Shown: piece after piece, positions 18,476 to 34,930 of the stretch
How positions within the stretch are numbered: the first letter of the stretch is position 1
Layout of the letters: each line of letters starts with the position of its first letter
Origin: a candidate division CSSED10-310 bacterium
GTDB taxonomy: Bacteria > CSSED10-310 > JAFGJC01
NCBI GenBank assembly: GCA_016927905.1
Contig: JAFGLW010000013.1
Span: 159,810-223,809, forward strand
Reading direction: 5' to 3'
Length of the DNA: 64,000 nt
The notes under the pieces: generated by a model
What the model saw: only the letters and a program-made list of their open reading frames with translations
Told to the model about the DNA's origin: nothing
Databases searched by the model: none
Program-made: the position numbers and the translations under genes

Positions 18476-20857
18476 TTAATGCCAGCCGAACGAGAACATC
18501 CCGTAATCACCGAACAACTGTGTGATACCCGGGTCGGTCATGGCAGCGTACCACAGGATTCCCGTTGCTGAGCCGACATTGCCAGGCCATGTGAAACTGG
18601 GCAGCACGTTCAATGTCGCCCTGCCGGGAGTGATCGCCAGCGTGTAATGGTCGAATGCTCCGAACGACGGCGCGAAGAACAGCAGCCCGTAGACATCCAG
18701 AATCACGAACACCGGAATGTCGGTGTGGGTTTCACCGCCGGGATTGCAGATATAGACATCACAAAAGCACACGTCACCCGCGGTGAAATCGGTCTGAGGC
18801 ATGAATACTTCGCAGCCCAGCGTGTCGCATTCTGGAGTCGCGGTGGGGGGGATTGGGGTGTCGGTGGGCGGAATGGGTGTATTTGTCGGAGCTCCGGTGG
18901 GAACCGTCGCGGTCGGCGGCACGGGTGTGCTGGTCGGGATGGGCGTGTTGGTGTTCGGGGCGGGGGTGTCGGTGGGCGGCACCGGCGTATTGGTGGGAAC
19001 ACCCGTCGGAACGGTCGGCGTGGGCGGCGCGGGGGTATCGGTGGGGGGAACCGGCGTGGCGGTCGGAGGGATCGGGGTATTGGTTGCGGGTCCGGGCGTT
19101 TCGGTGGGCGTAGGTGTGGGCAGGGTGATGCCGAAAAAGGTCATGATGTTATACAGCAGCAGGCCGGGCAGCTGCCCGCCGGCCTGCTGCATCAACCCGC
19201 CGTACTTGATGCTAGCGCCGACGGTTTTGTATGAGCCGCCATCGTAGGCTACTCCGTTGTAATAAACCGGGCTGCCGTTTTCGAGGAAAGAGAAAGCGCC
19301 AGCCAGGGGGGCGATTCGATCGATATAGCTGTTGTATGTCCCGCCGGTCTGATAATCCCAGGCCAGGCCCTCGGTAAATGATCCCGCAACACCGTTGATG
19401 GGCCCGGCATCACCGGTGCCATCCGCCAGCCCGTCGATGTGGAACAGGTCATGAAACGCGGTCTGGGCATCGTAGGCCCAGGTGTCCCCGCCCTCCATAT
19501 AGGCGTTCCCTCCGGCCTGCAGATAGGAGGCCAGGAAATCGCCGTCCGACGGGGAAAGGGCATGGTTGGTGCTGTAAACACCCAGACACACGAAAACGGA
19601 CGAATAGGTCAGCAGCGCAGACGGCATCGCCGTGCCGTAGATCACATCGGCGCTCATGTTCGTCAGTTCGTCGCGAATGACCGGGCCGGAATTGTGCGAA
19701 TTGTCCAGGTCGATGATCATTACATCGTGCGGTGCGATCACGTTCATCTCATGGTATCCGGTATCCGGATGATAGGCGGTGTTGGGCGACATGGCGACAT
19801 CCACCGCGATGATCCGATACTCGACCAGATCTCCGATATCGACCGTTCCGGTAAGCGTTGCCACGTAATCCCCGCGTTCCGTCATGGGTATCTGCTGGAA
19901 CCCGCCACCGTTGATCTGAAACTCCACGGTCGCGGTATCGATACCCTGGTTGTCGGTGATCTCCGCGGAAATGACCGGCGGCCAGAACATCGGCGATATT
20001 TCGGTCAGTGGAACATGTTCGATGGCCGGCGGCACCATATCCGGTTCGACATTGAACGAATATGTCTCATCCGGCGCACCCACTGGTATGACCCGGTTGC
20101 AGTAGTCGTTGACGACATCCAGATAGTAATACACAGTCGTTCCATGGGACTGTGTGGGGATATCGGCTGAATAGGTGTTCCCGCCGACCAGGGACATCAC
20201 CAGTTCGGTGAAGGCCGGGCCGCCGTCGGTGTTGTATGCCAGGATCGGGTAACCCGGCGCGATGGGCGATCCGGACGTGAAATCGGCTTCGATCGGAATG
20301 GGTTCATAGTTGATTTCCGTGTCCGGATGGGGTGTGTGGTCGATATTCACGACTTCCTGAAGGTTGGTTGTGATCTGGGTGATGACCTGCGCCTCGTTGA
20401 ATCCAACCACCGTATAGGTGACCTCGAAATCGCATTTCAATACCGCATTGTGGGGAACATAATGGGTGGGTCCCGGGGAAAATGCATAGTATACGACGCG
20501 GTTCGGATCGGCCAGGACCGGATGGGTCAGACCGTGTTGGTTCACCCAGGTCAGGCAGTCTGCGACACTCCGGCCGACGCCGATTGAGAGAACAACCATC
20601 CCGTCGGGACCATAGGTTTCATACATTTCCTGCAGATGCGGAGCCTCCGCAATGCAACTTCCTCAGGTCGGTGTCCAGAAGGCCAGGACGATCACCATGC
20701 CCGTATAATCGTAGAGTGATACCGGATTGCCGTAGGCATCGTTCAAGGTGAAGTCCGTGACGAAATCACCCACCTCGTAAACAGCCAGTGCCGGTGCTGT
20801 CAATGCGAGCATCGCACACAGCGCGGCAATGCCAAATGTTATACGCCGGTTTTTCAT
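18476..20857 (-). CDS. Secreted multidomain selenoprotein: signal peptide, TlpA/AhpC-like thioredoxin fold (U65-G-S-C68), Ig-like domains, Pro/Thr linker, conserved C-terminal domain (~793 aa)
   Basis: ORFs 20663..20881 and 18476..20626 are in the same frame, separated only by TGA (20665-20663): LAFWTPT-[UGA]-GSCIAEAPHLQEMYE. GAGGAGG RBS before ATG 20857. SECIS-like hairpin follows the UGA. Confidence 0.85.
18835..19130 (-). repeat. Pro/Thr-rich linker of ~7-aa TP(V/I)PPTx repeats
   Basis: [30 protein letters not shown]...; boundaries approximate. Confidence 0.85.
20631..20665 (-). promoter_or_regulatory. Putative bacterial SECIS element
   Basis: UGA-GGAAGU-UGCA-U-UGCGGA-GGC-UCCGCA-UC-UGCA: 6-bp upper stem, G-led apical loop 17 nt after the UGA, 4-bp lower stem. 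Confidence 0.7.
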
Positions 20858-20929
20858 GGTTTCCTCCTCTGGTGAATACATATCCCTAGTGTTCAGGGAA
20901 AATTCCCCACCCTTGATGAGCCCGGTTGA

Positions 20930-20958
20930 AGGTTACGGTTATTTTTTTGTTGAGTCAA
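20930..20958 (-). promoter_or_regulatory. Sigma70-type promoter for the selenoprotein gene
   Basis: TTGACT-17 nt-TAACCT. Confidence 0.5.
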
Positions 20959-20980
20959 TAGCTCAAGATATTTTCCGGTG

Positions 20981-21009
20981 TTGTATGCCCGGGGTCCGCC
21001 GCTTATAAT
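20981..21009 (+). promoter_or_regulatory. Sigma70-type promoter for the TonB-dependent receptor (leaderless)
   Basis: TTGTAT-17 nt-TATAAT, then 7 nt to ATG 21017. Confidence 0.65.
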
Positions 21010-21016
21010 CCGTTTC

Positions 21017-23335
21017 ATGTGCCGGCGGTGGCTGTTGATATCCGTTGCGGGTTTCTGCCTGCTTGCCTGTCCCGTTATCCGGGCGGCCCGGCTGACCGGT
21101 GTGGTGACCGACGCCCTGACCGGCGTTCCGGTTGAGGGCGCTGCGGTGTCTCTGCTGCCCGACTGCGCCGTTGTTTCCACCGACATGAACGGCGCATTTG
21201 CTTTCTCGAACGTCGGTCCCGGCCGGTATGAACTGGAGGTGTCGGCGCGCGGCTATTCGTCCGCGGGGCTGGAACACATCGATATCCGCCGTCGTGAAAC
21301 CGGTGTCCGACATTTCAAGATACCGCTGGAGCCGGTCAGTTATACAGCCGAGATTCTGGTCACGGCCGAACCGGTTGAAGTGCGCTTCAGAGACATCATG
21401 ACAACCGAAATCCCGGTCGAACTGCTGGCGGACGAACCGGGAGCGCTGGAGGATCCGGTGAAGAAAGTCCAGACCCTGCCCGGCGTTGCCGGTTCGGCGG
21501 ATTTCATGTCCGTTTTGTATGTCCGGGGCGGCGCATCGGATGAAACCATGCTGTTTCTGGACCGGAGCTACCTGTTGAATCCGTATCATCTGGGCGGGGC
21601 GTTCACGGTTTTTTTCGAGGATCTGGTGGACAAGGTGGAGTTTTATACGGGTGGTTTTCCAGCCCGGTACGGCAATGCCCTGTCCGGGGTGCTGGATGTC
21701 ACCTACCGGTCGGGCGATCGGGCGAAGTTCCGGGCCATGGCGGATCTGAGCCTGATCAGCGCCAAGATCCGGCTTGAGGGCCCGATACAAAAGAGCCGGA
21801 TAAGCTATCTCCTGGCTTTCCGCCGATCTTACTGGGATTATGCAGCCGAGATGGCGGACCTGGATGACGATATCGCCGCACCCTATTTTGGAGACCTGTT
21901 CGGGAAGATCACCTATTTCGCCTCCACACGCCGGATATCGCTCTCGATACTGGACGGTGCCGATGGGCTGGAGCGGTTCACGCTGGAGGATTCCGCCGAA
22001 AACCCCGATGCGGAGGACAGCACTTTTTTCTATCTGAACCGGAGCCGGCTGGTCGATCTGACCTGGGAGGAATGGTTCAATCCAATGTGGAATCTGACCG
22101 GAACCGTTTCCCATTCCATCATCGGCACCGAAGCCGATCTGACCGGTACGGACCCCATCCGGGCCGAAGCCGATATCCGGTTTCTGATGTCCGATATCCA
22201 GATCAGCCGCGAAACCGAAACGGTGCGGTATTCGACCGGCATCCAGGCGGGAAAAGCCCGGATCCGGCTGAATTCCTTCCTGTCGGATTATTGGTACTCT
22301 ACATCCGGTGCCCGTCAGAGCGGGAACGATAATCCCGGCAGATCCTCTATTCAATTTACGGAGTCCTTCGCCTTCCAAGCGATCTGGTCGGAATTGGAGT
22401 GGGCGGCTTCGTGGGACCGGCTGATGCAGGCGACTGCGGGAATCAGAGTGGACCGGTGGGAGTCGACAGGGGAGATCACGCTGGCACCCCGGCTGAACCT
22501 GATGGCGGGGATGACGGACCGGATCCGCCTGAGAGCTGCTGCAGGAATTTTCTACCAGTACCCCTATGATATTCTGGAGAGCGCCACGGTGTACGGAAAT
22601 CCCGACCTGAAATCGGAGCGAGCCAGACACCTGATCCTCGGGCTGGAAGGCGATGTCACATCGTTTTTCAAGATCCGGGCAGAGGGTTTTTACAAATGGT
22701 ATGACCGGAGTATCGTCAATCACGACACGAGAGAGGCGGCATGGGAAGCCCTGAAGCGGGGTAACCCGTTCGTCAATGAAGGACGTGGATTTGCCTATGG
22801 AGGCGAATTGTTCTGCCAGTTGTTTCCCTGGAGGTTTCTGGATGGATGGTTCACATACGGGTATTCGCTTACCCGGATCGCCAACCCGCTGCATCGGGAA
22901 AATCCCGAATGGTATTACCCGTTGCAGGACCAGCGGCACACCGCGCACCTGGTTCTGAATGTCCGGCCCCTGGCGGGATGGATTTTCTCCGCCCGGGCCA
23001 GTTTCAACACCGGCCGGCCCAATACCGAGATCACCGGCTGGGATCTCGAGCTGGACCGGGATCCGCCCCACTTTCCAATCTGGGTGGCCCGTTACGGATC
23101 GCTCAACGCCGACCGGACGGACAGCTATTTCAGGCTGGATTTACGAATACGGCGGATGAAAAGATTCCGAAACAGCGAGCTGTCGGTCTATGTGGACCTG
23201 ATCAACGTCACCAACCGGAAAAATGTTTATGTGGAGACTTACGATTCCGGGGATCCCCAGGAAACCGAGCCAGAGCCGGAACCGACATACAACCTGCCTT
23301 TTATACCGGTTTTCGGGATCGGCTATCAGTTCTGA
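21017..23335 (+). CDS. TonB-dependent outer-membrane receptor with N-terminal carboxypeptidase-regulatory-like domain
   Basis: Signal peptide; GVVTDALTGVPVEGAAV; plug region LPGV...LYVRGG...GGFPARYGNALSGVLD; C-terminal GIGYQF beta-signal. Confidence 0.9.
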   Translation: MCRRWLLISVAGFCLLACPVIRAARLTGVVTDALTGVPVEGAAVSLLPDCAVVSTDMNGAFAFSNVGPGRYELEVSARGYSSAGLEHIDIRRRETGVRHFKIPLEPVSYTAEILVTAEPVEVRFRDIMTTEIPVELLADEPGALEDPVKKVQTLPGVAGSADFMSVLYVRGGASDETMLFLDRSYLLNPYHLGGAFTVFFEDLVDKVEFYTGGFPARYGNALSGVLDVTYRSGDRAKFRAMADLSLISAKIRLEGPIQKSRISYLLAFRRSYWDYAAEMADLDDDIAAPYFGDLFGKITYFASTRRISLSILDGADGLERFTLEDSAENPDAEDSTFFYLNRSRLVDLTWEEWFNPMWNLTGTVSHSIIGTEADLTGTDPIRAEADIRFLMSDIQISRETETVRYSTGIQAGKARIRLNSFLSDYWYSTSGARQSGNDNPGRSSIQFTESFAFQAIWSELEWAASWDRLMQATAGIRVDRWESTGEITLAPRLNLMAGMTDRIRLRAAAGIFYQYPYDILESATVYGNPDLKSERARHLILGLEGDVTSFFKIRAEGFYKWYDRSIVNHDTREAAWEALKRGNPFVNEGRGFAYGGELFCQLFPWRFLDGWFTYGYSLTRIANPLHRENPEWYYPLQDQRHTAHLVLNVRPLAGWIFSARASFNTGRPNTEITGWDLELDRDPPHFPIWVARYGSLNADRTDSYFRLDLRIRRMKRFRNSELSVYVDLINVTNRKNVYVETYDSGDPQETEPEPEPTYNLPFIPVFGIGYQF

Positions 23336-24467
23336 CCGGAGTTTCGTTCCACAATTCCTCAAAGCGCCCCGCGAACCGCCCGTTTTCCATGAGCACTGCA
23401 TCGTCGGCATAGATCCGTCCTTCACGCCTGAGATCGTGAAGCAGGTCCCAGTGGATGGCGGACCGGTTTTTGCCCAGTGTTTCGGCGTAAGAGTCGCCGA
23501 GAGCGAGGTGAATCGTTCCGCCCATTTTTTCGTCGAACAGAAGATTCCGTGTGAACCGCTTGATCTCCCAGTTGGTTCCGATACCCAGTTCGCCGATGCG
23601 CCGGGCTCCGGGATCCGTGTCCAGCATCTTCATCAGGAACGATTCGTTGGTTTCCGCCGACGCCTTGGCGACCCGGCCCCGCCTGAATTCCAGCCGGATG
23701 CCGGCGGCTTCCTGTCCCAGGTAGCAGCCGGGATAGGAGAACTTGATCCAGCCGTCCACGGCGTTCTCGACCGGGCCGGTATAGATTTCACCGTCGGGCA
23801 TGTTGACCTTCCCGGAGCTTTCACAGATGATGCGGCCCTCCGTACCCAGCCGCAGATCGCACTCCGGCGTTTCAATCCTGAAAACCTTTGTGCCGGCCAG
23901 TTCATGGGTCATTTTCTGCTGACGCAGCCGCAGGTTCCGCCATCGCTCGACAGCGTCTTCGTACACCAGGAATCCGGCGTGAAATATAAAGTCGGCGAAT
24001 TCCTGGATCGACATGGCGGCGTCCTGGGCATAGGCATGAGTGGGATAGCTGGTGACGTTCCACCGGATCCGTTCCTTGCGGATTCTGCCCAGTTTCCGCC
24101 TGGCCAGGCGCACCATTTTCAGCTTCGCCGGATCCACCCAGGTCAGGGATTTGGTGTTGGGTTCCGCCGTGACATGCAGGGAAACATCCGTGTGCCTGAC
24201 ACGGAATTCATCGATCTTGTGCACGTGGGACAACTGATCGGGCCCGGCATGTCGGTAAAATATTCCGGAAGCTGTCGGGAACACCGGAGCGATCACCGGG
24301 AACGCGCCCGCCTCCAGGCAACGCCGATACAACGCCAGCATCAATGGCTCACCGTCAATCTCGCCGGTGATCTCCACCCGCTCCCCCGGTTTGACCTCCG
24401 TGCAGAAATCGACGATTACCTCCGCCCAACGCATGATTCTTGGATCCTGCCAGAACAGCTCCTTCAT
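23301..24467 (-). CDS. Aminopeptidase, M29 (aminopeptidase II/T) family
   Basis: NMPDGEIYTGP, IGELGIGTN, LFDEKMGGTIHLALG, SAIHWDL. Confidence 0.92.
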   Translation of the reverse strand: MKELFWQDPRIMRWAEVIVDFCTEVKPGERVEITGEIDGEPLMLALYRRCLEAGAFPVIAPVFPTASGIFYRHAGPDQLSHVHKIDEFRVRHTDVSLHVTAEPNTKSLTWVDPAKLKMVRLARRKLGRIRKERIRWNVTSYPTHAYAQDAAMSIQEFADFIFHAGFLVYEDAVERWRNLRLRQQKMTHELAGTKVFRIETPECDLRLGTEGRIICESSGKVNMPDGEIYTGPVENAVDGWIKFSYPGCYLGQEAAGIRLEFRRGRVAKASAETNESFLMKMLDTDPGARRIGELGIGTNWEIKRFTRNLLFDEKMGGTIHLALGDSYAETLGKNRSAIHWDLLHDLRREGRIYADDAVLMENGRFAGRFEELWNETPVRTDSRSRKPV

Positions 24468-24521
24468 CCGAACCTCCAGTGGAAAAAATGACCTGCCGGG
24501 ACACTGCTTCCCGGGCGGCTA

Positions 24522-24550
24522 ACGCTATGTCCGGAAGACGCTGATGTCAA
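24522..24550 (-). promoter_or_regulatory. Sigma70-type promoter for the aminopeptidase
   Basis: TTGACA-17 nt-TAGCGT. Confidence 0.55.
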
Positions 24551-24614
24551 GTTCGGGGAAGTGGATCGGTCTGAAAACGGGTGAACCGCTCCAGATGCGT
24601 TGTTGGAATTGAAC

Positions 24615-24643
24615 TTGCATTATTCAAGGTGATGGTTTCTAAT
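24615..24643 (+). promoter_or_regulatory. Sigma70-type promoter for the C25 peptidase gene
   Basis: TTGCAT-17 nt-TCTAAT; AAGGAGG RBS before ATG 24741. Confidence 0.5.
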
Positions 24644-24740
24644 GCCCGATTGACCGGATGGTGTCTGTTTTAAACAACTCTCCGGTATTGTCCAGATTTT
24701 GTCAGAAGAGCGTTTCTGACTCCTCAAGGAGGATTAATTT

Positions 24741-26957
24741 ATGAAGCTCAGCACAACGATTGGTTTGCTTGTATGCCTGCTGCTTTGCCTTCCGGCATCC
24801 ACAGCGGCGGAAGGCGGCTCCGCGAATTGGATTGATTTCGGGAGCGCTTTCGCAGGGAACGCTCCGGATGTCCAGGCGCAAAGTTCCTGGGACGGCATCG
24901 ATATTTGGATTCAGGTTCCGGGCGTGAATGTCCGGGATGTGAAGACAAAAAGCGGTGTTTATACCCGGCTGGCATTCGATGACGATGCATTCCGGGGAGC
25001 GATCGGATCACCCCGGATACCGGTGATTCGGAAATTCGTCGAAATTCCTTATGGAGCCGAGATCGATCTTGAAATCCTGTCGGAGGATGCCGCCACGCTG
25101 GACCTGGCGACCCGGGGATTCACCCATCCCCTCGTTCCGGTCCAGGCGCCCGTGCCGAAGCTGCCCGGAGCCCTCGAAGCTGCGCCGTTTAATTTGGATG
25201 CGTCCGTCTATGGACGGGACAGCTTTCTGGTCGGGCAGACGGTGAGAATACAAAAAATCGATGCGCTGCGCGGGTACCGGATTGCGGTGCTGGAAATCTG
25301 CCCGGTCGATTACAACCCGGTGCAAAACACGATCCGGGCGGCGGGTATGATCCATGTCCGCCTGAATCTGACCGGATCCGACCGGGCACTGACGGAAAGC
25401 CGGGCGTTGCGCTACGCCACGCCGGTGTTCGAGCAGCTCCTGTCCAATATGACCTTGAATCATGGCGCTTACCGGAATTTCCAGTTTCCGCCCGATGTTC
25501 CCATCGGGTACCTGATCATCTGCCACGACGATTATATCGCCGCCTATGATCCGTTCGTACAGTGGAAAACGCTGTGCGGCTGCGACGTGACCGTCACACC
25601 CACCTCAGTGACCGGCACCGGAACGGCCAACATCAAGAACTACATCCAGGAAGCCTATGACACCTGGACCAATCCGCCAGTGTATGTCCTCCTGGGAAGC
25701 GATACCGATACGGTCGCCTGTTTCACCGGTGAAAGCTCCGGTTCGGCGGACGACAACCAGTACAGTGAACTAGAGGGCACCGGTCACTGGACACCCGATA
25801 TCATGATCGGCCGGTTCCCCGTCCGGAGCGTAACCGATCTGGAAAACATCCTGGAAAAAGTTCTGCAGGTGGAGCAGATGACCATGCCGTCGACGGACTA
25901 TTTCAAGGATTCGGTATGGCTGGCATCCAGCGATCACAGCACGATGCTGGAAGCGACCCATGAATGGTGCTTCGACAACCATGTCTATCCCCTGGATCCG
26001 GTCAACAATACCTTCCATGCCGTTTATGAACGGCTGGGGGGCGGCACCCAGGATTTCGCCGACAACGTCGATGCAGGGCGCGGGATCGTCTGCTATTCGG
26101 GTCACGGTTACGGCAACGGTTCCGGAACCGCCAGCGTGCATTTCGTTCACGAGAATGTTTCAGCGCTGACCAACACGGATCTGTACGGGCATGTGATGGT
26201 ATTCGCCTGCGGCACCAATTTGCACGATCAGGAGATTTCCTTCGGGGAACGCTGGCTGCTGGAACCCGACAAGGGATCCGCCTCCTACTGGGGCACTTCG
26301 GACAGCTCCTACTGGGACGAGGACGACTGGGAACAGCGGGAGATTTACCGGAGCCAGCACGAGGACCTGATTCACACCTTGTCGGCAATGTATTTCTGGG
26401 GCCTGATCGAGGTTTACAATCAGGGATCGTCCAGTTCCGGATATTATTTCGATATTTACAACCTGATGGGGGACCCCTCATCCGATTTTCTCACGCGGAT
26501 ACCGCAAACGATGGTCCTGGACTGTCTGCCCACAACCACGCCGAACGAGCAGGATTTCGTTCGACATCACGGTTCGGGTGGACGGGACACCTCGGGCGGG
26601 CGCGCTGGCGGCCGTCAGCATGGGCGGCGTCCTGCTGGGGGCGGCTTATTCGGATGCGAGCGGTGTGGCCACAGTGCATTTCACCCCGCCGGCTCCCGGA
26701 TCGGCCTTGATCACCGTGACCGGTCACAACCTGATACCCCATCAGCAGGAACTGCTGATCACGGCGGCCGGCTGCGGTGTCATGGTCCTGGACGACAGCC
26801 TGTACAATTGCATCGATCTGATCACCATCCGCCTGTGGGATTCGGATTTGAATCTGAATCCCGGCGATCTGGATACGGCCGAAATCGATATCGCCTCCGG
26901 CAGCGAGCCGACTCCCGAGACGGTAATATTGACGGAAGTGTCCCCGGACAGCGGTGA
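24741..26957 (+). CDS. Gingipain-family (peptidase C25) cysteine protease, N-terminal part: signal peptide, propeptide, catalytic domain. Frameshifted after ~26559; the tail to 26957 is probably out-of-frame
   Basis: GAIGSPRIPVIRKFVEIP propeptide; IKNYIQEAY, YVLLGSD, IMIGRFPV; catalytic His (SGHG) and Cys (VFACGT); YNLMGDP. Confidence 0.85.
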   Translation: MKLSTTIGLLVCLLLCLPASTAAEGGSANWIDFGSAFAGNAPDVQAQSSWDGIDIWIQVPGVNVRDVKTKSGVYTRLAFDDDAFRGAIGSPRIPVIRKFVEIPYGAEIDLEILSEDAATLDLATRGFTHPLVPVQAPVPKLPGALEAAPFNLDASVYGRDSFLVGQTVRIQKIDALRGYRIAVLEICPVDYNPVQNTIRAAGMIHVRLNLTGSDRALTESRALRYATPVFEQLLSNMTLNHGAYRNFQFPPDVPIGYLIICHDDYIAAYDPFVQWKTLCGCDVTVTPTSVTGTGTANIKNYIQEAYDTWTNPPVYVLLGSDTDTVACFTGESSGSADDNQYSELEGTGHWTPDIMIGRFPVRSVTDLENILEKVLQVEQMTMPSTDYFKDSVWLASSDHSTMLEATHEWCFDNHVYPLDPVNNTFHAVYERLGGGTQDFADNVDAGRGIVCYSGHGYGNGSGTASVHFVHENVSALTNTDLYGHVMVFACGTNLHDQEISFGERWLLEPDKGSASYWGTSDSSYWDEDDWEQREIYRSQHEDLIHTLSAMYFWGLIEVYNQGSSSSGYYFDIYNLMGDPSSDFLTRIPQTMVLDCLPTTTPNEQDFVRHHGSGGRDTSGGRAGGRQHGRRPAGGGLFGCERCGHSAFHPAGSRIGLDHRDRSQPDTPSAGTADHGGRLRCHGPGRQPVQLHRSDHHPPVGFGFESESRRSGYGRNRYRLRQRADSRDGNIDGSVPGQR

Positions 26958-29730
26958 ATTCCTGGGCACGATCATGACATCGGGCACCCAGGGCGGAACG
27001 GGATACCTGCTCCTGTCGCACGGAGACATGATCACGGCGCATTATCACGATGAAGACTGCGAGGGCAGCCCCGCGGATGTATACGACACAGCCGATGCGG
27101 ACTGCCAAGCGCCGGTCATCAGCGGTGTCGCCGTGACGGGGATCGGAGTCGAGACCTTCACGGTGACATGGACCACCGACGAGCTGTCCACCAGCATCCT
27201 GACTTGGGGCGACACCGTTCCGCCGGTGAATGTCGAAACCGATCTCATGATGACCACCGACCATGAAATCGTTCTGGAAGGGTTGTCCATGTGCACGGAA
27301 TATTTCTTCAAGGTAGGCAGCACCGATGCCGCGGGGAACACCGGCGAAGACGATAACATGGGCAGCTACTATTCCGTCACCACGCTTCAAGAAATCATCT
27401 TCCTGGAAGTAAACCTGGAAACCAATCCGGGCTGGTCGGTCGAGGGTCAGTGGGCATACGGCCGGCCCACCGGGCAGGGTGGCGCTTACGGTAACCCGGA
27501 TCCGGCGGCCGGATATACCGGCGACAACGTCCTGGGTTACAACCTGAACGGGGACTACCCGAATGACATGCCCGCAACCCTCTATCTGACCACCACGCCG
27601 TTTGACTGCTCCGCAGCCACGGATGAACTGACCTTCGGTTTCTGGGCGTGGCTGGGAGTCGAGCAGAGCGCATACGATCACGCCAATGTAGAGATCAGTG
27701 TGGACAGCGGCAGCAACTGGCAGAGTCTGTGGGAAAACTCCGGCACACTGGAAGGCGGAAATTGGGAGTACTGGGAATTCGATATCGCGGCCGTCGCGGC
27801 GGGACAGCCGGATGTCCGGATCCGCTGGGGAATGGGCCCGACCGACGGCGGCTGGACCTACTGCGGCTGGAACATCGACGACATCAAGGCTTCCTACACT
27901 TCATTTTGTAACGTGCCGCTCCTGGTCCACGACAGCCATGTGATCGACGATTCCGCCGGCAACAACGACGGGCAGATCAACGCCGGCGAAACCATTTCCA
28001 TGCCGGTTACGCTCCGGAACAACGGCGTCGATGCGTTTGACGTGACCGGTGTCCTGACCACGACCAATCCGCACGTCACCATCACCGAGAACACGGCCAA
28101 TTATCCCGACATACCGCAGAGCGGCACCGGGACGTCCCTGACCGATTATGTTTTCACGGTCAGCGAAGAGGCGGTCGACGGGGAGGTGATTCCGTTCACG
28201 ATCGCCTGGAGCACGTCCAATGACGCCATGGGCACCACCGGTTTCAACGAGATGGTGGTGGCACCCGGCCTGATCTTCGAAGCGGTCTACGTGGATGACA
28301 GCGCGGGTGATTCGGACGGGATACTGGATCCAGGCGAAACCGCCCGGTTGATCGTCACCATTCAAAACCTGGGCAACGGCACCGCACATGACATCACGGG
28401 TGTCATGAGTTCCGATCAGCCGGCATACATCACCTTCGACGACGATACGGCCGGGTTCCCGGACCTGGAAAGCGGGCAGTCGGGCGTCAGCATGGATCCG
28501 CATTTCACGTTGACCATCGACGGGTCCATTCCGGACCACACCATGGTGACCTTCACCCTGAATATCGCCGCGCAGGGGTACACGACTTCCGACACATTCA
28601 TGCTGGAAGTGACCACCTCGACATTCTCGCGGCGTTATTTCTGGCCGATGGACTGCGATCCCGGGTGGACCGGGGAAAGTAACTGGGAGTTCGGGACGCC
28701 ACTGGGCAACGAGGGTGACCCGGACGCGGGGTACACCGGTGTCGCGGTTTATGGATACAATCTGGCCGGAGATTACGAGAGCGACATGCCGGAAACAAAC
28801 CTGACTTCCGAAGCGATCGACTGCTCGACCTTGTCCAGTGTGGAGGTGCGGTTCATGCGATGGCTGGGTGTGGAAAGCTCCCAGTACGATCACGCATCGT
28901 TCCGCGTGTCCAGCAACGGCACGTCCTGGCAGACCGTATGGGATCATTCGGGCGCGACTTTCACCGATGACGACTGGGTGCCGATGGAATTTGACATTTC
29001 CGCGGTTGCCGACGGCCAGGCCTCGGTCTACCTGCGCTGGGTGATGGGTACAACCGACTCCTCCCTCACCTACTGCGGGTGGAACATCGACGATGTGGAG
29101 ATCTGGGCGGAGGGAATGGGAATGCCGCCAACCTACACACCACTGCCCCCGACCCGCACCCCGGTTCCGCCCACCGAAACCCCCGTTTCGCCAACGAATA
29201 CACAGGCACCGCCTACCGAAACGCCGATGCCGACCAATTCACCGGTTCCAACCGGCACCCCGGTTCCGCCCACCGAAACCCCCGTCCCGCCGAGTGCGAC
29301 ACACGCTCCGACCGATACTCCGGTCCCGACCAGCACCCCGACCGTGCAGTTTCCCACCGCGACGCCCACCGAGGGTCCCGACCACATCGTTCTGGATCTG
29401 GAACTGAGCGGCGAAATGTTCCGGGCGGGAGACGATTTCCTGCTCACACGGCGGGCCATCAATCCCGGACCCCAGGTGACACTCGACGAGTGGATCATCC
29501 TGGACGTCTACTCCCTGTACTTTTTCTATCCCAGCTGGTCCGAAATACCCGACTACACGGTCACAACTCTGGCACCCTATTCGGACGACACGGTCATTGT
29601 TCTGGAGTTCGCGTGGCCGGAAGGTGAGTTCGGGACGGTGACGGGTCTGCGGTTCTGGGGCGCGTTCGTCGATCCGGTCGTGATGCAGATCGTAGGCGAT
29701 TACGACATGGTCGAATTCGGTTACAACTGA
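26560..29730 (+). CDS. C-terminal part of the same C25 protein: Ig/FN3-like and beta-sandwich repeats, Pro/Thr linker, conserved C-terminal domain
   Basis: Frame resumes at TTC GAC ATC ACG (FDITVRV) after a TTCG duplication; no RBS or signal peptide of its own; duplicated W.G..NWEFG.P.G...DP..GYTG..V.GYNL.GDY...YCGWNIDD domain. Confidence 0.82.
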   Translation, partial: FDITVRVDGTPRAGALAAVSMGGVLLGAAYSDASGVATVHFTPPAPGSALITVTGHNLIPHQQELLITAAGCGVMVLDDSLYNCIDLITIRLWDSDLNLNPGDLDTAEIDIASGSEPTPETVILTEVSPDSGEFLGTIMTSGTQGGTGYLLLSHGDMITAHYHDEDCEGSPADVYDTADADCQAPVISGVAVTGIGVETFTVTWTTDELSTSILTWGDTVPPVNVETDLMMTTDHEIVLEGLSMCTEYFFKVGSTDAAGNTGEDDNMGSYYSVTTLQEIIFLEVNLETNPGWSVEGQWAYGRPTGQGGAYGNPDPAAGYTGDNVLGYNLNGDYPNDMPATLYLTTTPFDCSAATDELTFGFWAWLGVEQSAYDHANVEISVDSGSNWQSLWENSGTLEGGNWEYWEFDIAAVAAGQPDVRIRWGMGPTDGGWTYCGWNIDDIKASYTSFCNVPLLVHDSHVIDDSAGNNDGQINAGETISMPVTLRNNGVDAFDVTGVLTTTNPHVTITENTANYPDIPQSGTGTSLTDYVFTVSEEAVDGEVIPFTIAWSTSNDAMGTTGFNEMVVAPGLIFEAVYVDDSAGDSDGILDPGETARLIVTIQNLGNGTAHDITGVMSSDQPAYITFDDDTAGFPDLESGQSGVSMDPHFTLTIDGSIPDHTMVTFTLNIAAQGYTTSDTFMLEVTTSTFSRRYFWPMDCDPGWTGESNWEFGTPLGNEGDPDAGYTGVAVYGYNLAGDYESDMPETNLTSEAIDCSTLSSVEVRFMRWLGVESSQYDHASFRVSSNGTSWQTVWDHSGATFTDDDWVPMEFDISAVADGQASVYLRWVMGTTDSSLTYCGWNIDDVEIWAEGMGMPPTYTPLPPTRTPVPPTETPVSPTNTQAPPTETPMPTNSPVPTGTPVPPTETPVPPSATHAPTDTPVPTSTPTVQFPTATPTEGPDHIVLDLELSGEMFRAGDDFLLTRRAINPGPQVTLDEWIILDVYSLYFFYPSWSEIPDYTVTTLAPYSDDTVIVLEFAWPEGEFGTVTGLRFWGAFVDPVVMQIVGDYDMVEFGYN
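29120..29376 (+). repeat. Pro/Thr-rich linker of TPVPPTx repeats
   Basis: PPTYTPLPPTRTPVPPTETPVSPTNT...; boundaries approximate. Confidence 0.85.
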
Positions 29731-29750
29731 TCACGGATTAAACTGAGTCA

Positions 29751-29786
29751 AGCGGTCCGGTATTCATGTTCCGGACCGCTTTTTTT
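29751..29786 (+). terminator. Rho-independent terminator after the C25 gene
   Basis: AGCGGTCCGG-10 nt loop-CCGGACCGCT followed by a T tract. Confidence 0.88.
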
Positions 29787-29826
29787 GACACGAATATAAT
29801 TCTAAAAGCAATCTCATTTCGGATTG

Positions 29827-29855
29827 TTGCCCGTCAAAACGGGGACGGCTATAAT
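29827..29855 (+). promoter_or_regulatory. Sigma70-type promoter for the three-gene membrane/TPR/DUF2142-like operon
   Basis: TTGCCC-17 nt-TATAAT. Confidence 0.55.
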
Positions 29856-29893
29856 GCCGCCGTCATGGAGAATTGCGGTTGAATCGGGTCGGA

Positions 29894-30574
29894 ATGCCGG
29901 TCCGGGAGAAAGTCCTGATCTGGCTGCTGGTCGCCGCGCCGTTTCTGGCGGCCGCCGGATACTGGGTTACAAACGGGTTTTCGGCAACGATGATCCGGAA
30001 CACCCGGGTGGGAGCGCCCTGCCCACCGCTGAAGACCGGCGACATCCTGAGCCAGTCCCTCACGGTGCCGGACGGCCGGCTGGACCGGGTCATGCTGCTG
30101 TTCGGAACGTACCGGCGGATCAACCGGGGCCGTGTCCGGGTTTCACTCGCCGGTGATAACAGCCCTTCGGACATCAGAACGGTGGATCTGGACATCAGCC
30201 GGCTGGTCGACAATGAATGGGCGGTGATCGAATTCGGTGATTTCCGTGCCGATCCGGGCAGTGCAGTCACGCTTCAGATCGAAGCGGTGGATGGTTCCGC
30301 GGGGAATGAAATCACCCTGTATCATGACGGTACGGGCCACTATGCGGGTGGTTCCCTGGCCCGTAATGGCGCGCTGCTGCCATTCGACCTGGTATTCCGG
30401 ATTCAACGGGAAGAATACCTGCCCGGCATCGTATCGGCGATCGTGGCGGACCGGGCACCCCGGCACGGCATCCTGCTGGTTTCGATCCTGGGTTTGCTGG
30501 TTTGTGCGGTATCGGTCCTGCTGGGGATCGGTCTGATTGCCATCCGGATGCGTGGGAACGGGGTAACGAAATGA
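29894..30574 (+). CDS. Hypothetical membrane protein: N- and C-terminal TM segments flanking a beta-rich periplasmic domain
   Basis: TM VLIWLLVAAPFLAAAGYW; soluble SQSLTVP...DLVFRI; C-terminal TM. Start uncertain (29873 or 29894). Confidence 0.62.
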   Translation: MPVREKVLIWLLVAAPFLAAAGYWVTNGFSATMIRNTRVGAPCPPLKTGDILSQSLTVPDGRLDRVMLLFGTYRRINRGRVRVSLAGDNSPSDIRTVDLDISRLVDNEWAVIEFGDFRADPGSAVTLQIEAVDGSAGNEITLYHDGTGHYAGGSLARNGALLPFDLVFRIQREEYLPGIVSAIVADRAPRHGILLVSILGLLVCAVSVLLGIGLIAIRMRGNGVTK

Positions 30575-31500
30575 TCCGGTGGATCTGCGAAAACGTTTTG
30601 GCTTTTATCCTGCCGGCCGGGCTGGCGGCAGTTTTCGGATTCACCGTGCGGACTGCCACCGGAATCCTGCCGGAATCCCTCGACCGCGCATGGCACGTCA
30701 CTGGAGCGGCTTTCTGTGAAATCCGTCATGATCATGACGGCGTGATCCGGAACCTGGCGACGGTTCTCCGGAACCGGGATCGAGTGCCGGAAGCAGTTCG
30801 GAGCTGGCACGATGAATCAATGCGCCGGAGCGGGATGCAGAAGCTGATGGAGGGGGATTTCGCAGGGGCTGCGGCGCGGTTCGGGCAATACCTGGAAAGA
30901 CATCCCCGGCATTACCTGGTGACCGTCAACCGGGGGATTGCCCTGCAGAAGCTGGGTGATGTCGAATCGGCCCGTTCGCTGTTCACCCGGGCTGTCGAAC
31001 TGATTCCTGAAAATCACGACGCCTATCTCGCCCGGGGCCACCTGGCGCTGTTCACCGACCGCCTTGAGGAGGCACGGCCGGATTACGAACGGGCTCTGGA
31101 GCGGTCGGGTCGGCTGGGTCCAGTCCGGGTGGATATCGGGGATGCGTTCCGGCTGGCCGGGGACTGGGAAACCGCAAGTACGTTTTACCGGGCCGGTTCC
31201 GCCATGGATCCGATGGATCCGTTCAGCCTGGTCCGGATGGCCGAGACGGCGCTCTATCTGGACGGGGATCGGTTCCGGGCGCGGGAATATCTCGATCTGG
31301 CGGTGAACCTGATTCCCGGCTGGGAATCGGTTCTGCTGCTGAAAGAGCGGATCGGCACCTGGTCGCCCGGGGATGCGCGTCCGTACGTTCCCCTGGTGGT
31401 GATCCCGCCGGGACCCATTGAATCCTGGGAAATGCAGCCCAGCCGGCTGCTGGTGGAGTGGCAGCGACCGGAATGGAGGGGATATGCGGATCACCGGTAG
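30571..31500 (+). CDS. Membrane-anchored tetratricopeptide-repeat protein
   Basis: TPR consensus, e.g. NRGIALQKLGDVESARSLFTRAVELIP; ATGA overlap with the upstream stop. Confidence 0.8.
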   Translation: MIRWICENVLAFILPAGLAAVFGFTVRTATGILPESLDRAWHVTGAAFCEIRHDHDGVIRNLATVLRNRDRVPEAVRSWHDESMRRSGMQKLMEGDFAGAAARFGQYLERHPRHYLVTVNRGIALQKLGDVESARSLFTRAVELIPENHDAYLARGHLALFTDRLEEARPDYERALERSGRLGPVRVDIGDAFRLAGDWETASTFYRAGSAMDPMDPFSLVRMAETALYLDGDRFRAREYLDLAVNLIPGWESVLLLKERIGTWSPGDARPYVPLVVIPPGPIESWEMQPSRLLVEWQRPEWRGYADHR

Positions 31501-32833
31501 AATCTGGCCGTTCATCGCCGCGTATATCTTGGCTGCGCTGCTGATGGTTATATTGACACCCCCGTTCCAGCTGCCCGACGAGCCCACCCATCTGGCGGAA
31601 TGTCTGGATGCCGCGGCGAAACCGGATGAACACCGGGTTATATTGGAAATGGAAATACTGCGGCAGATGGCACGGTACAAATTCTGGCAGTACATCGCGC
31701 TGCCTGAGCCCGAATCGGTTCCGCTGCGTTTTTACGACGCGCCACTGCTTCGAATCCGTCCCACCCAGGCAACCAAGCCGGAACTGTATTTTATTCTGGG
31801 TGGCGGTCTGATCAAATTGTTCCGGATTCATGATTCGGTGATCGCCATGTACCTCCTGCGGATCCTGGGAATCGGGCTGGGTCTGGCGGCCGCACTGATC
31901 CTGGTGTTAACCGCGAAGCTTGCCTGCGAAGACAGTCGGGTACGTTTTCTGGCGGTCGGGACCCTGTTTGTGCCCCAGTTCGTCTATATGTCAGGATCAG
32001 TCAATCCCGCCAACCTGTCCTGGATCGCCGGCGGTCTGATTCTGGCCGGGAGCTTGCAGATAGCCGGATCACCCAGAACCGCAGCGGGTTACGGCCTCAT
32101 CCTGCTGGGCATCGTCCTGGCACTGGCATCCCACCGGGCCGGTCTGATCACACTTCCCGCCGCCGCGGTTGCGTTGATCATCCACCTGGTCCGGTCCCGC
32201 AGGCGGATCGCCGGACTGTCCCGGACCCTGTCTTTATCGATTTCGCTGGGGGCGGGAACGGCGGCTCTGGCTGCCTGGCTGATGGCGGCGGGTTGGTTTC
32301 CAGGTATCGTCAGGGCGGCTGCCGGCCACCTGGCGCGGATGTTCGCAGCTGTTCTGGTCGGGCCGGTGCCGATCTCCCGGTCCCCGGCGTGGTGGCTGCA
32401 CTGTCTGACCGTATTTCACAAGGGTGCCTGGATGGTGTTCGGGTGGTTCGCGGTGTTTGCCCATCCGGCGGTTTACGGGTTCCTGGCCCTGATTTCCATC
32501 GGTGCTCTGGCGGGAACCGCGCTCCTGATCGCCGACCGGTTCCGCCCGGATCGGATGAAACTGCTCGGGACTGCGCAGCTGGCGGTGCTGCTGGCGGCGA
32601 TCGCCGGAGGGTTGTGGTTCGGGGCGGGGCAGTATGCCGTCCGGGGCCAGATCGCCCAGGGTCGGTACATGTTTCCCGCACTGCCTGCATTTGCAGTGCT
32701 CTACGCCGCCGCCTGGATCCGGCTGACTGGAAACCGGACAGGGATCTGGACCGTCCGGGCGGGGATTGCCGTTCTGTGGGCGGTGTTCGTCTGTTCAGTC
32801 ACACTGGTGTTCATCCCGGCGTTCTACCTATAA
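31484..32833 (+). CDS. DUF2142-like polytopic membrane protein (GT-C-like)
   Basis: TPPFQLPDEPTH motif, QGRYMFP motif, about 11 TM segments. Confidence 0.72.
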   Translation: MRITGRIWPFIAAYILAALLMVILTPPFQLPDEPTHLAECLDAAAKPDEHRVILEMEILRQMARYKFWQYIALPEPESVPLRFYDAPLLRIRPTQATKPELYFILGGGLIKLFRIHDSVIAMYLLRILGIGLGLAAALILVLTAKLACEDSRVRFLAVGTLFVPQFVYMSGSVNPANLSWIAGGLILAGSLQIAGSPRTAAGYGLILLGIVLALASHRAGLITLPAAAVALIIHLVRSRRRIAGLSRTLSLSISLGAGTAALAAWLMAAGWFPGIVRAAAGHLARMFAAVLVGPVPISRSPAWWLHCLTVFHKGAWMVFGWFAVFAHPAVYGFLALISIGALAGTALLIADRFRPDRMKLLGTAQLAVLLAAIAGGLWFGAGQYAVRGQIAQGRYMFPALPAFAVLYAAAWIRLTGNRTGIWTVRAGIAVLWAVFVCSVTLVFIPAFYL

Positions 32834-32858
32834 ACCGGAACCGGATACCGGCGGTATA

Positions 32859-34751
32859 TCAGTAGCTGAATTCCACCATGTCGTACTCCCCCATCAGGGT
32901 CATGGTTTCCGGATCCAGAAGCGCACCCCAGAACCGGAGACCGGCTGCGGATCCCCCGACTTCAGGCCAGGTGAAATCGAACACGGTTTCCGTATCGTTG
33001 AATCCCCGGTCCAGATACCGGTTCATGAAATCCAGACTTTCGGTCCATCCCGGCCAGAACCAGAAGGATCCGTAAATATCCAGCAGGATATACTGGGACA
33101 CCGTGCAGCCGGCACCTGTATTGGTAACCCGGCAGGTGAAAATGAATGGATCGCCGGACCTGTAGACCGTCCGATTCAGCTCCAGGTCGATCGCCGGTTC
33201 GGGCGGGCCCGCGGTGGGAGTTGAAGTCGGTGGCGCCGGCGTGGCGGTCGACGGGATCGGGGTATCGGTCGGGGGGACGGGTGTATCGGTCGGGGGAACG
33301 GGCGTATCGGTCGGGGGGACGGGCGTGTATGTGGGGATGGGGGTGTTGGTTGCCGGTGCGGATGTGTTCGTGGGCACGCCGGTGGGAACCGTTGCCGTGG
33401 GCGGAACAGGCGTGGATGTGGGCGGCACCGGCGTTGCTGTGGGCGGGATCGCGGTGTTGGTCGGCACGCCGGTGGGAACCGTTGCCGTGGGCGGAACGGG
33501 CGTGGATGTGGGCGGTACCGGGGTTGAAGTCGGCAAAACGGGCGTGGATGTGGGTGGATTGGATGTGACAGTGGGGGAGGGAGTTGCGGAATGTACCGGC
33601 GTGGGGGTCGGTGTGTTCCCGCCTTCCGGCACCGGGATAAGCTGGGTGACGCAATGGATCGAGCCGCCGCTGGTGATGGAGCTGTCCGAGTTGATGGCGA
33701 CTACCGTCGTTCCCGGCATGGCGGCCTGGTAGACGGAAACTGCGGCGGTGTTCAGCGAGGGGAAGCTGGAATATTCCGGGATCAGAACCGAATCGTTCAC
33801 GATCAGGGAATTGGTGTAGGTATACCAGGTGTATCCGGAATAGGTGCAGTCCACCCGGATGACGGTCAGCCCCCATCCGGCGAAATCGGCGGCGATGGTC
33901 TCCAGAGTGGGATCAAACGTGGGGCTGCTGTCCGCGTTGGCGACCAGAACGGTGTGGTCGTCCAGCAGCTTGGCGATCATGTCGATGTGTCCGGTTCCGT
34001 CGGCGGGGAAATCGGGATATCCCACATAATCCACCACCCGGATCGTGTGCACTCCGAAATAATCCATGATCGCGTCGTGCACTTCCGCCTCGGTCAGATA
34101 ATCGTTCCAATTATAGGTTGCCCGCGTCATGTACAGGATGCCGGTCGTGTCCACCATGACGTTGCCGCCGTCCAGGATCAGCCAATCGCTTCCGGTGCCG
34201 GCGGTGTTGATGGAGTAGCAGTTCATCCCCAGGAAGCCGGCCAGACAGCAGGGCAGGGCGTCATCAAGGGGACGCTGTTGATAACGGCGGTACTGGGAAT
34301 CAACAATTCCCGTCGTTCCGCCCGGCAGGTGGATCCCGAAAGGGCCGTAATCCCGCATCCAGACTGAATTTAATGGGCAGGTGTTGATCTGCATATACAT
34401 TTCAGCCGGGACGCCGGAGATGGATGCGGGTGCGGAACTGCCCGTGCACCAGATTTCCGCCCCGGCCGCGGCGCCGGCCTGGGCGATGGCGGTCAGCATC
34501 GTGGTATACGCCATCCAGCTGATCACTACAGCCTCGGCGGGTTCATACTCGGCCGGCAGATGCGATCCTGCCGGAGGGAGATCCCGGTTGGGATTTTCAT
34601 ACCACTGTTCGGGCGGCAGGGTGACCTCGTTTTCACCCAGCCAGATGGGAAGCGGTTCATCCGCCGGTCCAGCCAGGATCGGGAGGGGAAACACAATCCG
34701 GACCGCCGCGATCGGCAGCAGCGTAAAAATCAGGAGTTTGATTGATTTCAT
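32859..34751 (-). CDS. Secreted agmatine/peptidylarginine deiminase-family enzyme with Pro/Thr linker and conserved C-terminal domain
   Basis: [31 protein letters not shown] (Asp/His/Cys catalytic set); N-terminal signal peptide. Confidence 0.92.
33205..33610 (-). repeat. Pro/Thr-rich linker with an internal duplication ([21 protein letters not shown] twice) and 21-bp units
   Basis: Translation of 32859..34751; near-identical DNA blocks around 33370-33430 and 33460-33520. Confidence 0.85.
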
Positions 34752-34930
34752 GGTATCCTCATTTGGGTGAAAAGAGCCAGATCCAGCGTGCCGGTGTACG
34801 CAAAAATCATACCCTGCCGGCAGGATGAAGGCCTGAATATCCGATCCGGGCGCGACCGCCGGTCGGGTCTTCCCAGTCGCGCCGGATTCCGGGTGAAAAA
34901 CCGGCCGATGAATGCTATCTTCGGCTGGTT

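Follow-up and report, generated by a model that had tools for sequence, protein, structure and literature searches.

A stretch of 64,000 nucleotides from a candidate division CSSED10-310 bacterium (NCBI GenBank assembly GCA_016927905.1, contig JAFGLW010000013.1, positions 159,810 to 223,809 of the forward strand) was analysed and is called the window here. Positions given without a contig are those of the window. The subject of this work is a C-terminal domain that is shared by three exported proteins encoded in the window, which are a thioredoxin-like selenoprotein, a gingipain-family C25 peptidase and a Porphyromonas-type deiminase. The domain belongs to a large, lineage-restricted family of C-terminal domains on Sec-exported proteins of a diderm bacterium. 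This family is unrelated to catalogued domains and independent of the type IX secretion system (T9SS). The three genes have the following features.

18476..20857, minus strand: gene of the exported thioredoxin-like selenoprotein, 793 codons with one TGA read through (translated with TGA as U)
20783-20857, minus strand: selenoprotein signal peptide (MKNRR..., start at 20857)
20663-20665, minus strand: selenocysteine codon of the selenoprotein (in-frame TGA, FWTPT-U-GSC)
18821..19141, minus strand: selenoprotein Pro/Thr linker, 107 amino acids (aa), 64% P+T
18479..18856, minus strand: selenoprotein C-terminal domain, Cys-rich subtype (profile E 4e-50; Cys-rich clade of the domain tree)
24741..26563, plus strand: N-terminal part of the C25 (gingipain-family) protein, with signal peptide, Propeptide_C25 (PF08126, E 3e-11) and Peptidase_C25 (PF01364, E 5e-44)
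26564..29730, plus strand: downstream part of the C25 protein, read in the +1 frame, with the C25 C-terminal immunoglobulin (Ig)-like domain, two choice-of-anchor J / MAM-like domains, linker and C-terminal domain
29116..29373, plus strand: Pro/Thr linker of the C25 protein, 86 aa, 60% P+T
29347..29727, plus strand: C-terminal domain of the C25 protein, Cys-poor subtype (profile E 8e-43); the sequence used for folding with AlphaFold2
32859..34751, minus strand: exported protein of the Porphyromonas-type peptidylarginine/agmatine deiminase family, 630 aa, with N-terminal signal peptide and PAD_porph at aa 65-373 (Pfam E 4e-35)
33192..33635, minus strand: Pro/Thr linker of the deiminase, 148 aa, 61% P+T
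32862..33236, minus strand: C-terminal domain of the deiminase, Cys-poor subtype (..VEFSY-stop; profile E 1e-47)

The three tails share approximately 120 aligned columns with 25-34% identity and 22 invariant columns. The E-values of the tails listed above were obtained with a hidden Markov model (HMM) of the approximately 100 copies in this genome, the three copies of the window included. Chance origin of the similarity is excluded by the reciprocal profile E-values, which reach approximately 1e-43 when a profile of the three sequences is searched against the genome. The same three-sequence profile finds exactly three domain copies in the window. The original prediction was made from the letters of the window and had placed a homologous tail on these three open reading frames (ORFs). 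The alignment and the profile E-values agree with it, and its tail coordinates are right within approximately 30 nt. The Pro/Thr linkers that it described are present in all three proteins (86-148 aa, 60-64% P+T). The catalytic parts also differ as it had claimed, with PAD_porph in the deiminase, Propeptide_C25 and Peptidase_C25 in the C25 protein (both from Pfam), and the thioredoxin-like T-U-G-S-C motif in the selenoprotein. It had assigned signal peptides to all three proteins. This stands as it is for the deiminase, for the selenoprotein only through read-through of the selenocysteine codon, and for the C25 protein only across a +1 frameshift.

The ORF that bears the selenoprotein tail spans 18476-20626 (-) and extends upstream through one in-frame TGA to the start at 20857. 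The signal peptide joins this ORF only because the TGA at 20663-20665 is read as selenocysteine. A tRNA-Sec gene is present in the same genome (contig C25:35024-35119; C followed by a number and a colon denotes a contig of the assembly). A paralogue of the selenoprotein on contig C15 (~90830-92963, +) has the same layout of signal peptide, thioredoxin-like ...T-U-G-S-C with in-frame TGA, large cargo and tail. The tail of the window selenoprotein follows the pattern C..LGC..MP..GDxCxC..CNPG..FFAPSF..FTWP..WYAAMTDP..FGWH-stop.

The tail of the C25 protein follows the pattern L.LELS..F.AGD.F.L..NPG..ILDVY..FFYPSW..FAWP..FWGAFVDP..VEFGYN-stop. Its ORF (26578-29730) lacks a signal peptide, which is found instead on the ORF at 24741-26957. 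A +1 frameshift at a direct TTCG TTCG duplication (26556-26563) divides this gingipain-family gene of approximately 1660 codons. The split falls between the peptidase part and the part with the Ig, MAM, linker and C-terminal-domain segments, and each half appears intact. The frameshift could be a genuine recent inactivation or an assembly error. The C25 gene is located 3 kb from the Porphyromonas-type deiminase gene, which echoes the gingipain/PPAD pair.

The three-sequence tail profile matched 109 places in the 3.12-Mb assembly. The six-frame ORFs gave 99-100 full-length domain copies. A simple gene call placed the domain on 99 of 2542 genes, which corresponds to 3.9% of the genes and 8.4% of the coding residues. 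A crude signal-peptide test was passed by 73-81 of the approximately 100 domain proteins. Among those that failed the test, most either show a visible signal peptide or are interrupted by the end of a contig, by a frameshift or by a selenocysteine codon. The expected C-terminal placement on signal-peptide proteins with diverse cargo was borne out, with a stop codon within 4 residues of the domain for 95 of 100 copies. A strongly P/T-rich linker was identified in about half of the domain proteins and a lipobox-like motif in only approximately eight. Internal copies were seen in two regions of this genome, C21:29159-35478 and one on contig C24 (reverse-strand ORF positions 32700-35334). Both regions exhibit no stop before the next cargo region and have overlapping frames, which suggests frameshifts or misassembly at repeated linker or domain sequences.

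The domain proteins fall into 69 cargo families after the domain is masked. The cargo of 70 members sampled from the reference library includes beta-helix/NosD, Chlam_PMP, Kelch, subtilase (S8), sortilin/BNR, FG-GAP and C25 domains, and further LTD, metallophosphatase, RHS, astacin, PETase-like and VWA domains. The sampled cargo is, by its predicted domains, surface or extracellular in type. The domain tree exhibits a Cys-rich clade that includes the selenoprotein tail, a small clade mostly on C25 peptidases, and a poorly resolved remainder that holds the C25 and deiminase tails of the window. Conserved cysteines are present in the domain, and disulfides in the Cys-rich subtype would probably be formed in the periplasm.

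The domain contains 3.0% K+R compared with 10.9% in the proteome, 16.4% aromatic residues compared with 9.1%, and 12.9% acidic residues. This composition would fit an extracellular module in contact with the 16 C25 peptidases of Arg/Lys type that the genome encodes. The domain and the linkers are nearly without Lys and Arg and would be poor substrates of the Arg/Lys-specific gingipain-type peptidases of the same cell. The depletion may thus represent protection in a milieu rich in such peptidases.

Loci related to the window tails were found in metagenome-assembled genomes (MAGs) that are labelled candidate division CSSED10-310 or are unlabelled, so the link to this division that the original prediction had drawn was correct. 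The name 'Ca. Getofiota' is in use for the phylum (PMC11382960). The phylum is placed as sister to Acidobacteriota and a Gram-negative cell has been predicted for it (PMC8248873). The diderm envelope assumed earlier is consistent with that prediction, with the secretins in the genome and with a TonB-dependent receptor in the window. This Oar-like receptor (20978-23335, +) has a CarboxypepD_reg N-domain, the 'LYVRGG' plug motif and a C-terminal ...GIGYQF. Its gene adjoins the selenoprotein gene divergently. It is a direct sign of an outer membrane.

The domain is present in 11 of 14 genomes of the phylum, which comprise the whole order of the window genome and one other family, and the positive genomes have from 59 to more than 107 copies each. 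The tail-less genomes of the phylum are G011, G012 and G013. The domain was found in none of 27 genomes of other phyla, in keeping with the proposed restriction to one lineage. A HMMER scan of 1.84 billion representative proteins gave 2755 matches at E<=1e-3 and 2333 at E<=1e-10. Among the best 150 of the 2755 matches, the domain is terminal in approximately 142, and the approximately eight exceptions are fragments, read-throughs and fusions. The fusions have the form cargo-domain-Pro/Thr linker-cargo(-domain), for example MBN1878803.1 on a 280-kb contig. The internal copies are read here as fused tandem genes or assembly problems, and they do show a domain that folds and is maintained at sites other than the C-terminus. 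The original prediction had listed internal or cytoplasmic occurrence of the domain as a finding that would speak against it; approximately 95% of the copies are terminal and a small share is internal. No published description of the domain was found, and the genome announcement (PMC8248873) does not mention it.

An AlphaFold2 model built with a 76-sequence alignment predicts an eight-strand all-beta sandwich (predicted local distance difference test score, pLDDT, 97.2; predicted template modelling score, pTM, 0.87), and on this model the domain would fold autonomously. The top 50 Foldseek matches in the PDB are generic Ig-like/E-set sandwiches only, at E of approximately 1e-3 and template modelling scores of approximately 0.5. 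They include RhoGDI, factor XIII barrels, fibronectin type III (FnIII)-like domains of glycoside hydrolase family 3 (GH3), complement macroglobulin (MG) domains and one carbohydrate-binding module (CBM), which is porphyran-binding. No T9SS C-terminal domain and no membrane barrel are among these 50 matches. Outer-membrane-barrel and T11SS-type cargo-barrel ideas were set aside as all the Foldseek matches are soluble sandwiches, although DUF560/Slam was not searched. An autotransporter or small outer-membrane beta-barrel anchor also does not agree with the soluble sandwiches, the conserved cysteines and the acidic composition.

The sequence searches gave a similar picture. The three window tails have no family match above cut-off in Pfam (E<=10) and NCBIfam (E<=1), and no Pfam match recurs among the 76 domain copies at E<=10. 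The profile search of PDB sequences gave a best E-value of only 0.84, for the MG domain of cobra venom factor. Two further sub-threshold matches cover only the first ~22 residues, namely TIGR01451 (DUF11 repeat; E 0.034, 14 bits against a cut-off of 24) and CARDB (PF07705; E 0.23, in 1 of 76 copies). All these weak matches lie in the first strands, which carry the signature '..pGD.f.l.v.v.N.G'. The likeness to E-set, MG and CARDB-DUF11 domains is regarded as one of fold class and not of family membership because no similarity is significant, and a distant fold class shared with CARDB/DUF11 is possible. Such Ig folds are usually internal repeats, whereas the window domain is a single terminal module with conserved motifs of its own (LDVYG, FFxPSW, FxWP, DP and FG[WY]-stop). 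The source annotations of family members cover the cargo only, for example FGE family or DUF6923. A match to a characterised domain had been named beforehand as the finding that would speak against a separate module, and Pfam, NCBIfam, PDB sequences and Foldseek gave no significant family match.

T9SS components were searched for with seven genomes as controls. Por_Secre_tail (PF18962) has no match in the whole genome of the window and, G001 aside, is missing from the CSSED10-310 genomes, compared with 27-104 copies in six of the controls. SprA_N (PF14349) is present once in each of these six controls and absent in all nine CSSED10-310 genomes tested. The seventh control (G027) has nine Por_Secre_tail copies and no SprA_N. 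A search with the SprA model TIGR04189 gave no match anywhere, controls included. The comparison by hhalign of the 76-sequence domain profile with an 18-sequence profile of T9SS C-terminal domains from the control genomes gave a probability of 2%. Membership in the T9SS families (PF18962 / TIGR04183) was therefore rejected on the missing HMM match, the hhalign result and the absence of SprA where the controls are positive. G001, a genome of the same family as the window genome (69% complete, 520 contigs), exhibits 11 Por_Secre_tail matches and no SprA, and these matches are probably contaminating contigs of the FCB (Fibrobacterota-Chlorobiota-Bacteroidota) group.

Other known sorting and anchoring domains were also compared. 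The 76 copies have no Pfam match at E<=10 to dockerin (PF00404), SLH (PF00395), PPC (PF04151) or known CBMs. The features of tripartite signals (PEP-CTERM, IPTL-CTERM, LPXTG and GlyGly-CTERM) were not found in the tail, which is globular and all-beta with 3% K+R and no hydrophobic helix. This agrees with the original statement that the tail has no transmembrane (TM) helix and no LPxTG, PEP-CTERM or SLH signature.

The domain and signals of the exosortase type were found to replace each other on homologous cargo. The selenoprotein's final cargo domain aligns at 41% identity (E 3e-41) with the final domain of a protein from the tail-less G011. Past the end of this alignment, the window protein continues as 'FFGITLPTPTPT...' into the Pro/Thr linker and the domain, and the G011 protein continues as 'FFGLVAVPTLSGT' into a TM helix and RR. 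Seven of ten sampled C25-family proteins of G011 end in a VPTLS-like motif, a TM helix and a basic tail. One G011 protein matches IPTL-CTERM (TIGR04174) at 24.8 bits against a cut-off of 20.5, and the model of XrtH (exosortase H) substrates also matched. TIGR04174 is a 27-position model and has low power in six-frame counting per genome. The domain thus occupies the position of a cell-anchoring signal both between and within genomes, which is the strongest argument for surface localisation of its cargo.

In the window genome, approximately eight proteins have a Pro/Thr linker followed by [IV]P[AT][TM][GS], a TM helix and a basic tail (RRK), for example those encoded at C20:744-4688, C15:26974-28452 and C9:13541-14482. 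The genome also encodes a short XrtH-like exosortase of 186 aa (C28:358647-359207, -), which matches TIGR04177 at 79.6 bits and TIGR04178 above cut-off. The enzyme and the approximately eight tripartite tails form an apparent second, minor sorting system beside the beta-sandwich domain. All 14 genomes of the phylum encode an XrtH-like exosortase; only G011 and G012 gave full-length exosortases. Exosortase was rejected as the reader of the domain, as the XrtH-like enzyme occurs in all 14 genomes regardless of the domain and the tail has no TM signal.

The neighbourhood of the domain genes and the peptidase content of the genomes were examined for a reader. None of the gene families is enriched at distances of up to two genes from the 99 domain genes (best uncorrected p 0.016). 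Most of the phylum has a strongly enlarged set of Peptidase_C25 genes, with 16 members in the window genome (3.1 Mb), 8-26 in the other domain-positive genomes, and 15, 2 and 1 in the tail-less G011, G012 and G013. C25 does not co-vary with the domain because G011, which has no tail, has 15. The domain is carried by 10-12 of the 16 C25 peptidases of the window genome. A C25 peptidase that serves the domain as a PorU-like sortase is thus unsupported, given the number in G011 and the fact that most copies in the window genome are themselves cargo.

The genome has three secretins, in two operons of the type II secretion system (T2SS) and one PilMNOPQ locus. A domain-carrying gene on the same strand flanks each of the two T2SS operons. 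One operon (C19:22523-36429, +) comprises gspE, F, G, H, K, L, M and D. One gene order, in which gspD is followed by the Big-repeat lipoprotein and then by a beta-helix protein that carries the domain, is kept in G000, G002, G004, G006 and G010, the last from a distant family. The second T2SS arrangement recurs only in G003. The lipoprotein that follows gspD has three Big-type Ig repeats and a Pro/Thr tail, and the gspD-lipoprotein order was found in 12 of 12 secretin loci from other genomes of the phylum. Domain-positive genomes encode a lipoprotein of 375-415 aa, and domain-negative genomes one of 608-662 aa with more repeats. The lipoprotein appears to be a conserved T2SS-associated component. 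The presence or absence of secretins does not discriminate between genomes with and without the domain. The T2SS is also present in the tail-less G011, and the synteny thus hints at an outer-membrane route and not at a reader. The original prediction had proposed a search for co-occurring secretion or transpeptidase genes; T2SS and an XrtH-like exosortase were found, and neither is specific to the domain.

We favour the reading that the domain is a lineage-specific surface-retention or sorting module, and on the present sequences we regard this as evenly balanced between right and wrong. The domain would probably hold proteins at the cell surface through a partner. The cargo, for which signal peptides are observed, would first be exported by the Sec pathway. 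It would then fold in the periplasm, where the Cys-rich subtype may acquire its disulfides. The outer membrane would be crossed most plausibly by one of the two T2SS, as the synteny suggests. The C-terminal domain would finally tether the cargo to the cell surface, with the extended and probably glycosylated Pro/Thr linker as a stalk. The acidic domain with its many aromatic residues would probably bind a component of the envelope non-covalently to form this tether. The module would thus be the functional counterpart of the IPTL-CTERM/exosortase-H-type anchors on the homologous G011 proteins.

Several points weigh against this surface-retention reading. No receptor, translocon or processing enzyme was found. 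Neither T2SS nor XrtH is specific to the domain, as both occur in domain-negative genomes too. Approximately 5% of the copies are internal. The acidic domain would not bind anionic lipopolysaccharide directly unless cations bridge the two. The strict C-terminal placement would suit a secretion signal equally well, and it could also be the historical outcome of 3' cassette shuffling at linker-coding repeats. The evidence consists of MAG sequences throughout.

The domain may instead be an export signal and not an anchor. It would then be recognised in the periplasm by a translocon (T2SS or an unrecognised outer-membrane machine) and possibly cleaved afterwards like the T9SS domain. We consider this reading unlikely. 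The placement at the extreme C-terminus is very strict, both in the window genome (95 of 100) and in the reference library (approximately 142 of the best 150), and the copy number per genome (59 to more than 107) resembles that of T9SS domains in the controls (27-104). The predicted domain would fold before export, as T2SS substrates do. Domain genes flank both T2SS operons and one arrangement is found in five genomes, but this association is statistically weak (p estimated at approximately 0.02-0.04), the second arrangement is kept in only one other genome, and T2SS also occurs where the domain is absent. No domain-specific machinery was found and the T9SS translocon is absent. The long Pro/Thr stalk and the exchange with membrane-anchor signals point to tethering over release. 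We know of no sequence definition of T2SS substrates. It is unlikely, in our view, that the domain is a modular, transferable cargo tag read by an outer-membrane export pathway outside the FCB group, either the T2SS of the phylum or an unrecognised translocon or attachment machine. If it were so with T2SS as the reader, the domain would be the first T2SS signal for targeting and retention that is a whole domain and can be defined by sequence. With either reader, the domain would be an independently evolved counterpart of the T9SS C-terminal-domain system, and it would cover approximately 4% of the proteome.

The domain could also be a CBM- or adhesin-like module that directs many secreted enzymes to one shared polymer or mineral surface in the environment and not to the envelope of the cell itself. 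An aromatic-rich, acidic beta-sandwich behind a Pro/Thr linker reproduces the classic layout of catalytic domain, linker and CBM, and the Foldseek matches include the porphyran-binding CBM and glycoside-hydrolase-associated Ig-like domains. Such a module would need no dedicated machinery, which is consistent with the lack of partner genes, and internal copies are tolerated. We nevertheless hold it to be distinctly improbable. The cargo consists mainly of peptidases, adhesin-like repeats and propellers and not of glycoside hydrolases, intact genes never carry the domain at the N-terminus, none of the known CBM families matches, and homologous cargo in the sister lineage is cell-anchored by an exosortase-type signal. 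A C-terminal pro-domain or intramolecular chaperone of the PPC kind, which would aid folding or latency and be removed on maturation, is very hard to credit. The domain is present on many peptidases (10-12 of 16 C25, and S8 and astacin members) and its position as a C-terminal beta-sandwich resembles that of PPC domains. However, it is found equally on non-enzymes (Kelch, FG-GAP, beta-helix, VWA and RHS), PF04151 does not match, and the flexible linkers of 86-148 aa between cargo and domain argue against an intramolecular role.

One uncatalogued domain on approximately 4% of the genes, or 8% of the coding capacity, defines the surface and secreted proteome of this lineage. It provides an annotation handle on roughly 2700 protein clusters that would otherwise be 'hypothetical'. 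Given its small size and the very high confidence of its predicted structure, the domain should be open to expression and structural study without culturing the organism. If a partner is found, the domain would represent a new anchoring mechanism or a readable T2SS signal.

The domain can be compared with several known systems. The layout of catalytic domain, Pro/Thr linker and CBM in Cellulomonas-type cellulases, and the PPC domains, resemble it in the terminal aromatic-rich beta-sandwich that a Pro/Thr linker connects. The CSSED10-310 domain differs from them in being strictly C-terminal and in having cargo that is mostly not glycoside hydrolases, and no single CBM family comes near its copy number in a genome of 3 Mb. 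Type I dockerins are also small, near-always C-terminal modules behind flexible linkers on dozens of secreted proteins, and they tether by protein-protein binding with no processing enzyme. They differ in their Ca-binding, duplicated helical (EF-hand-like) fold, in their partner, which is cohesin on a scaffoldin, and in cargo centred on carbohydrate-active enzymes. No repeated cohesin-like receptor protein was recognised in the window genome.

The IPTL-CTERM/PEP-CTERM signals take the same position on homologous cargo of the sister genome, follow the same kind of Pro/Thr linker in approximately eight proteins of the window genome, and share the presumed surface localisation. They consist of a motif of approximately 30 residues with a TM helix and a basic tail and are cleaved by a membrane transpeptidase, whereas the CSSED10-310 domain is soluble and acidic, forms a beta-sandwich of 120 residues and lacks a TM segment. 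The T9SS type A domain likewise forms an Ig-like beta-sandwich at the very end of proteins exported by Sec, and this resemblance is functional only. Either domain occurs on tens to more than 100 unrelated proteins per genome, which include C25 peptidases of the gingipain family and a deiminase of the Porphyromonas type. The T9SS domain has approximately 75-95 aa, compared with approximately 120 aa and eight strands in the CSSED10-310 domain. The T9SS tails of the control genomes end in K/R, whereas the CSSED10-310 domain is acidic and poor in Lys and Arg. T9SS belongs to Bacteroidota and the FCB group, and the CSSED10-310 phylum lies outside that group. The two domains fill the same place in protein architecture, in part on shared cargo types, with no detectable homology between them, which makes the CSSED10-310 domain a natural experiment in diderm surface display.

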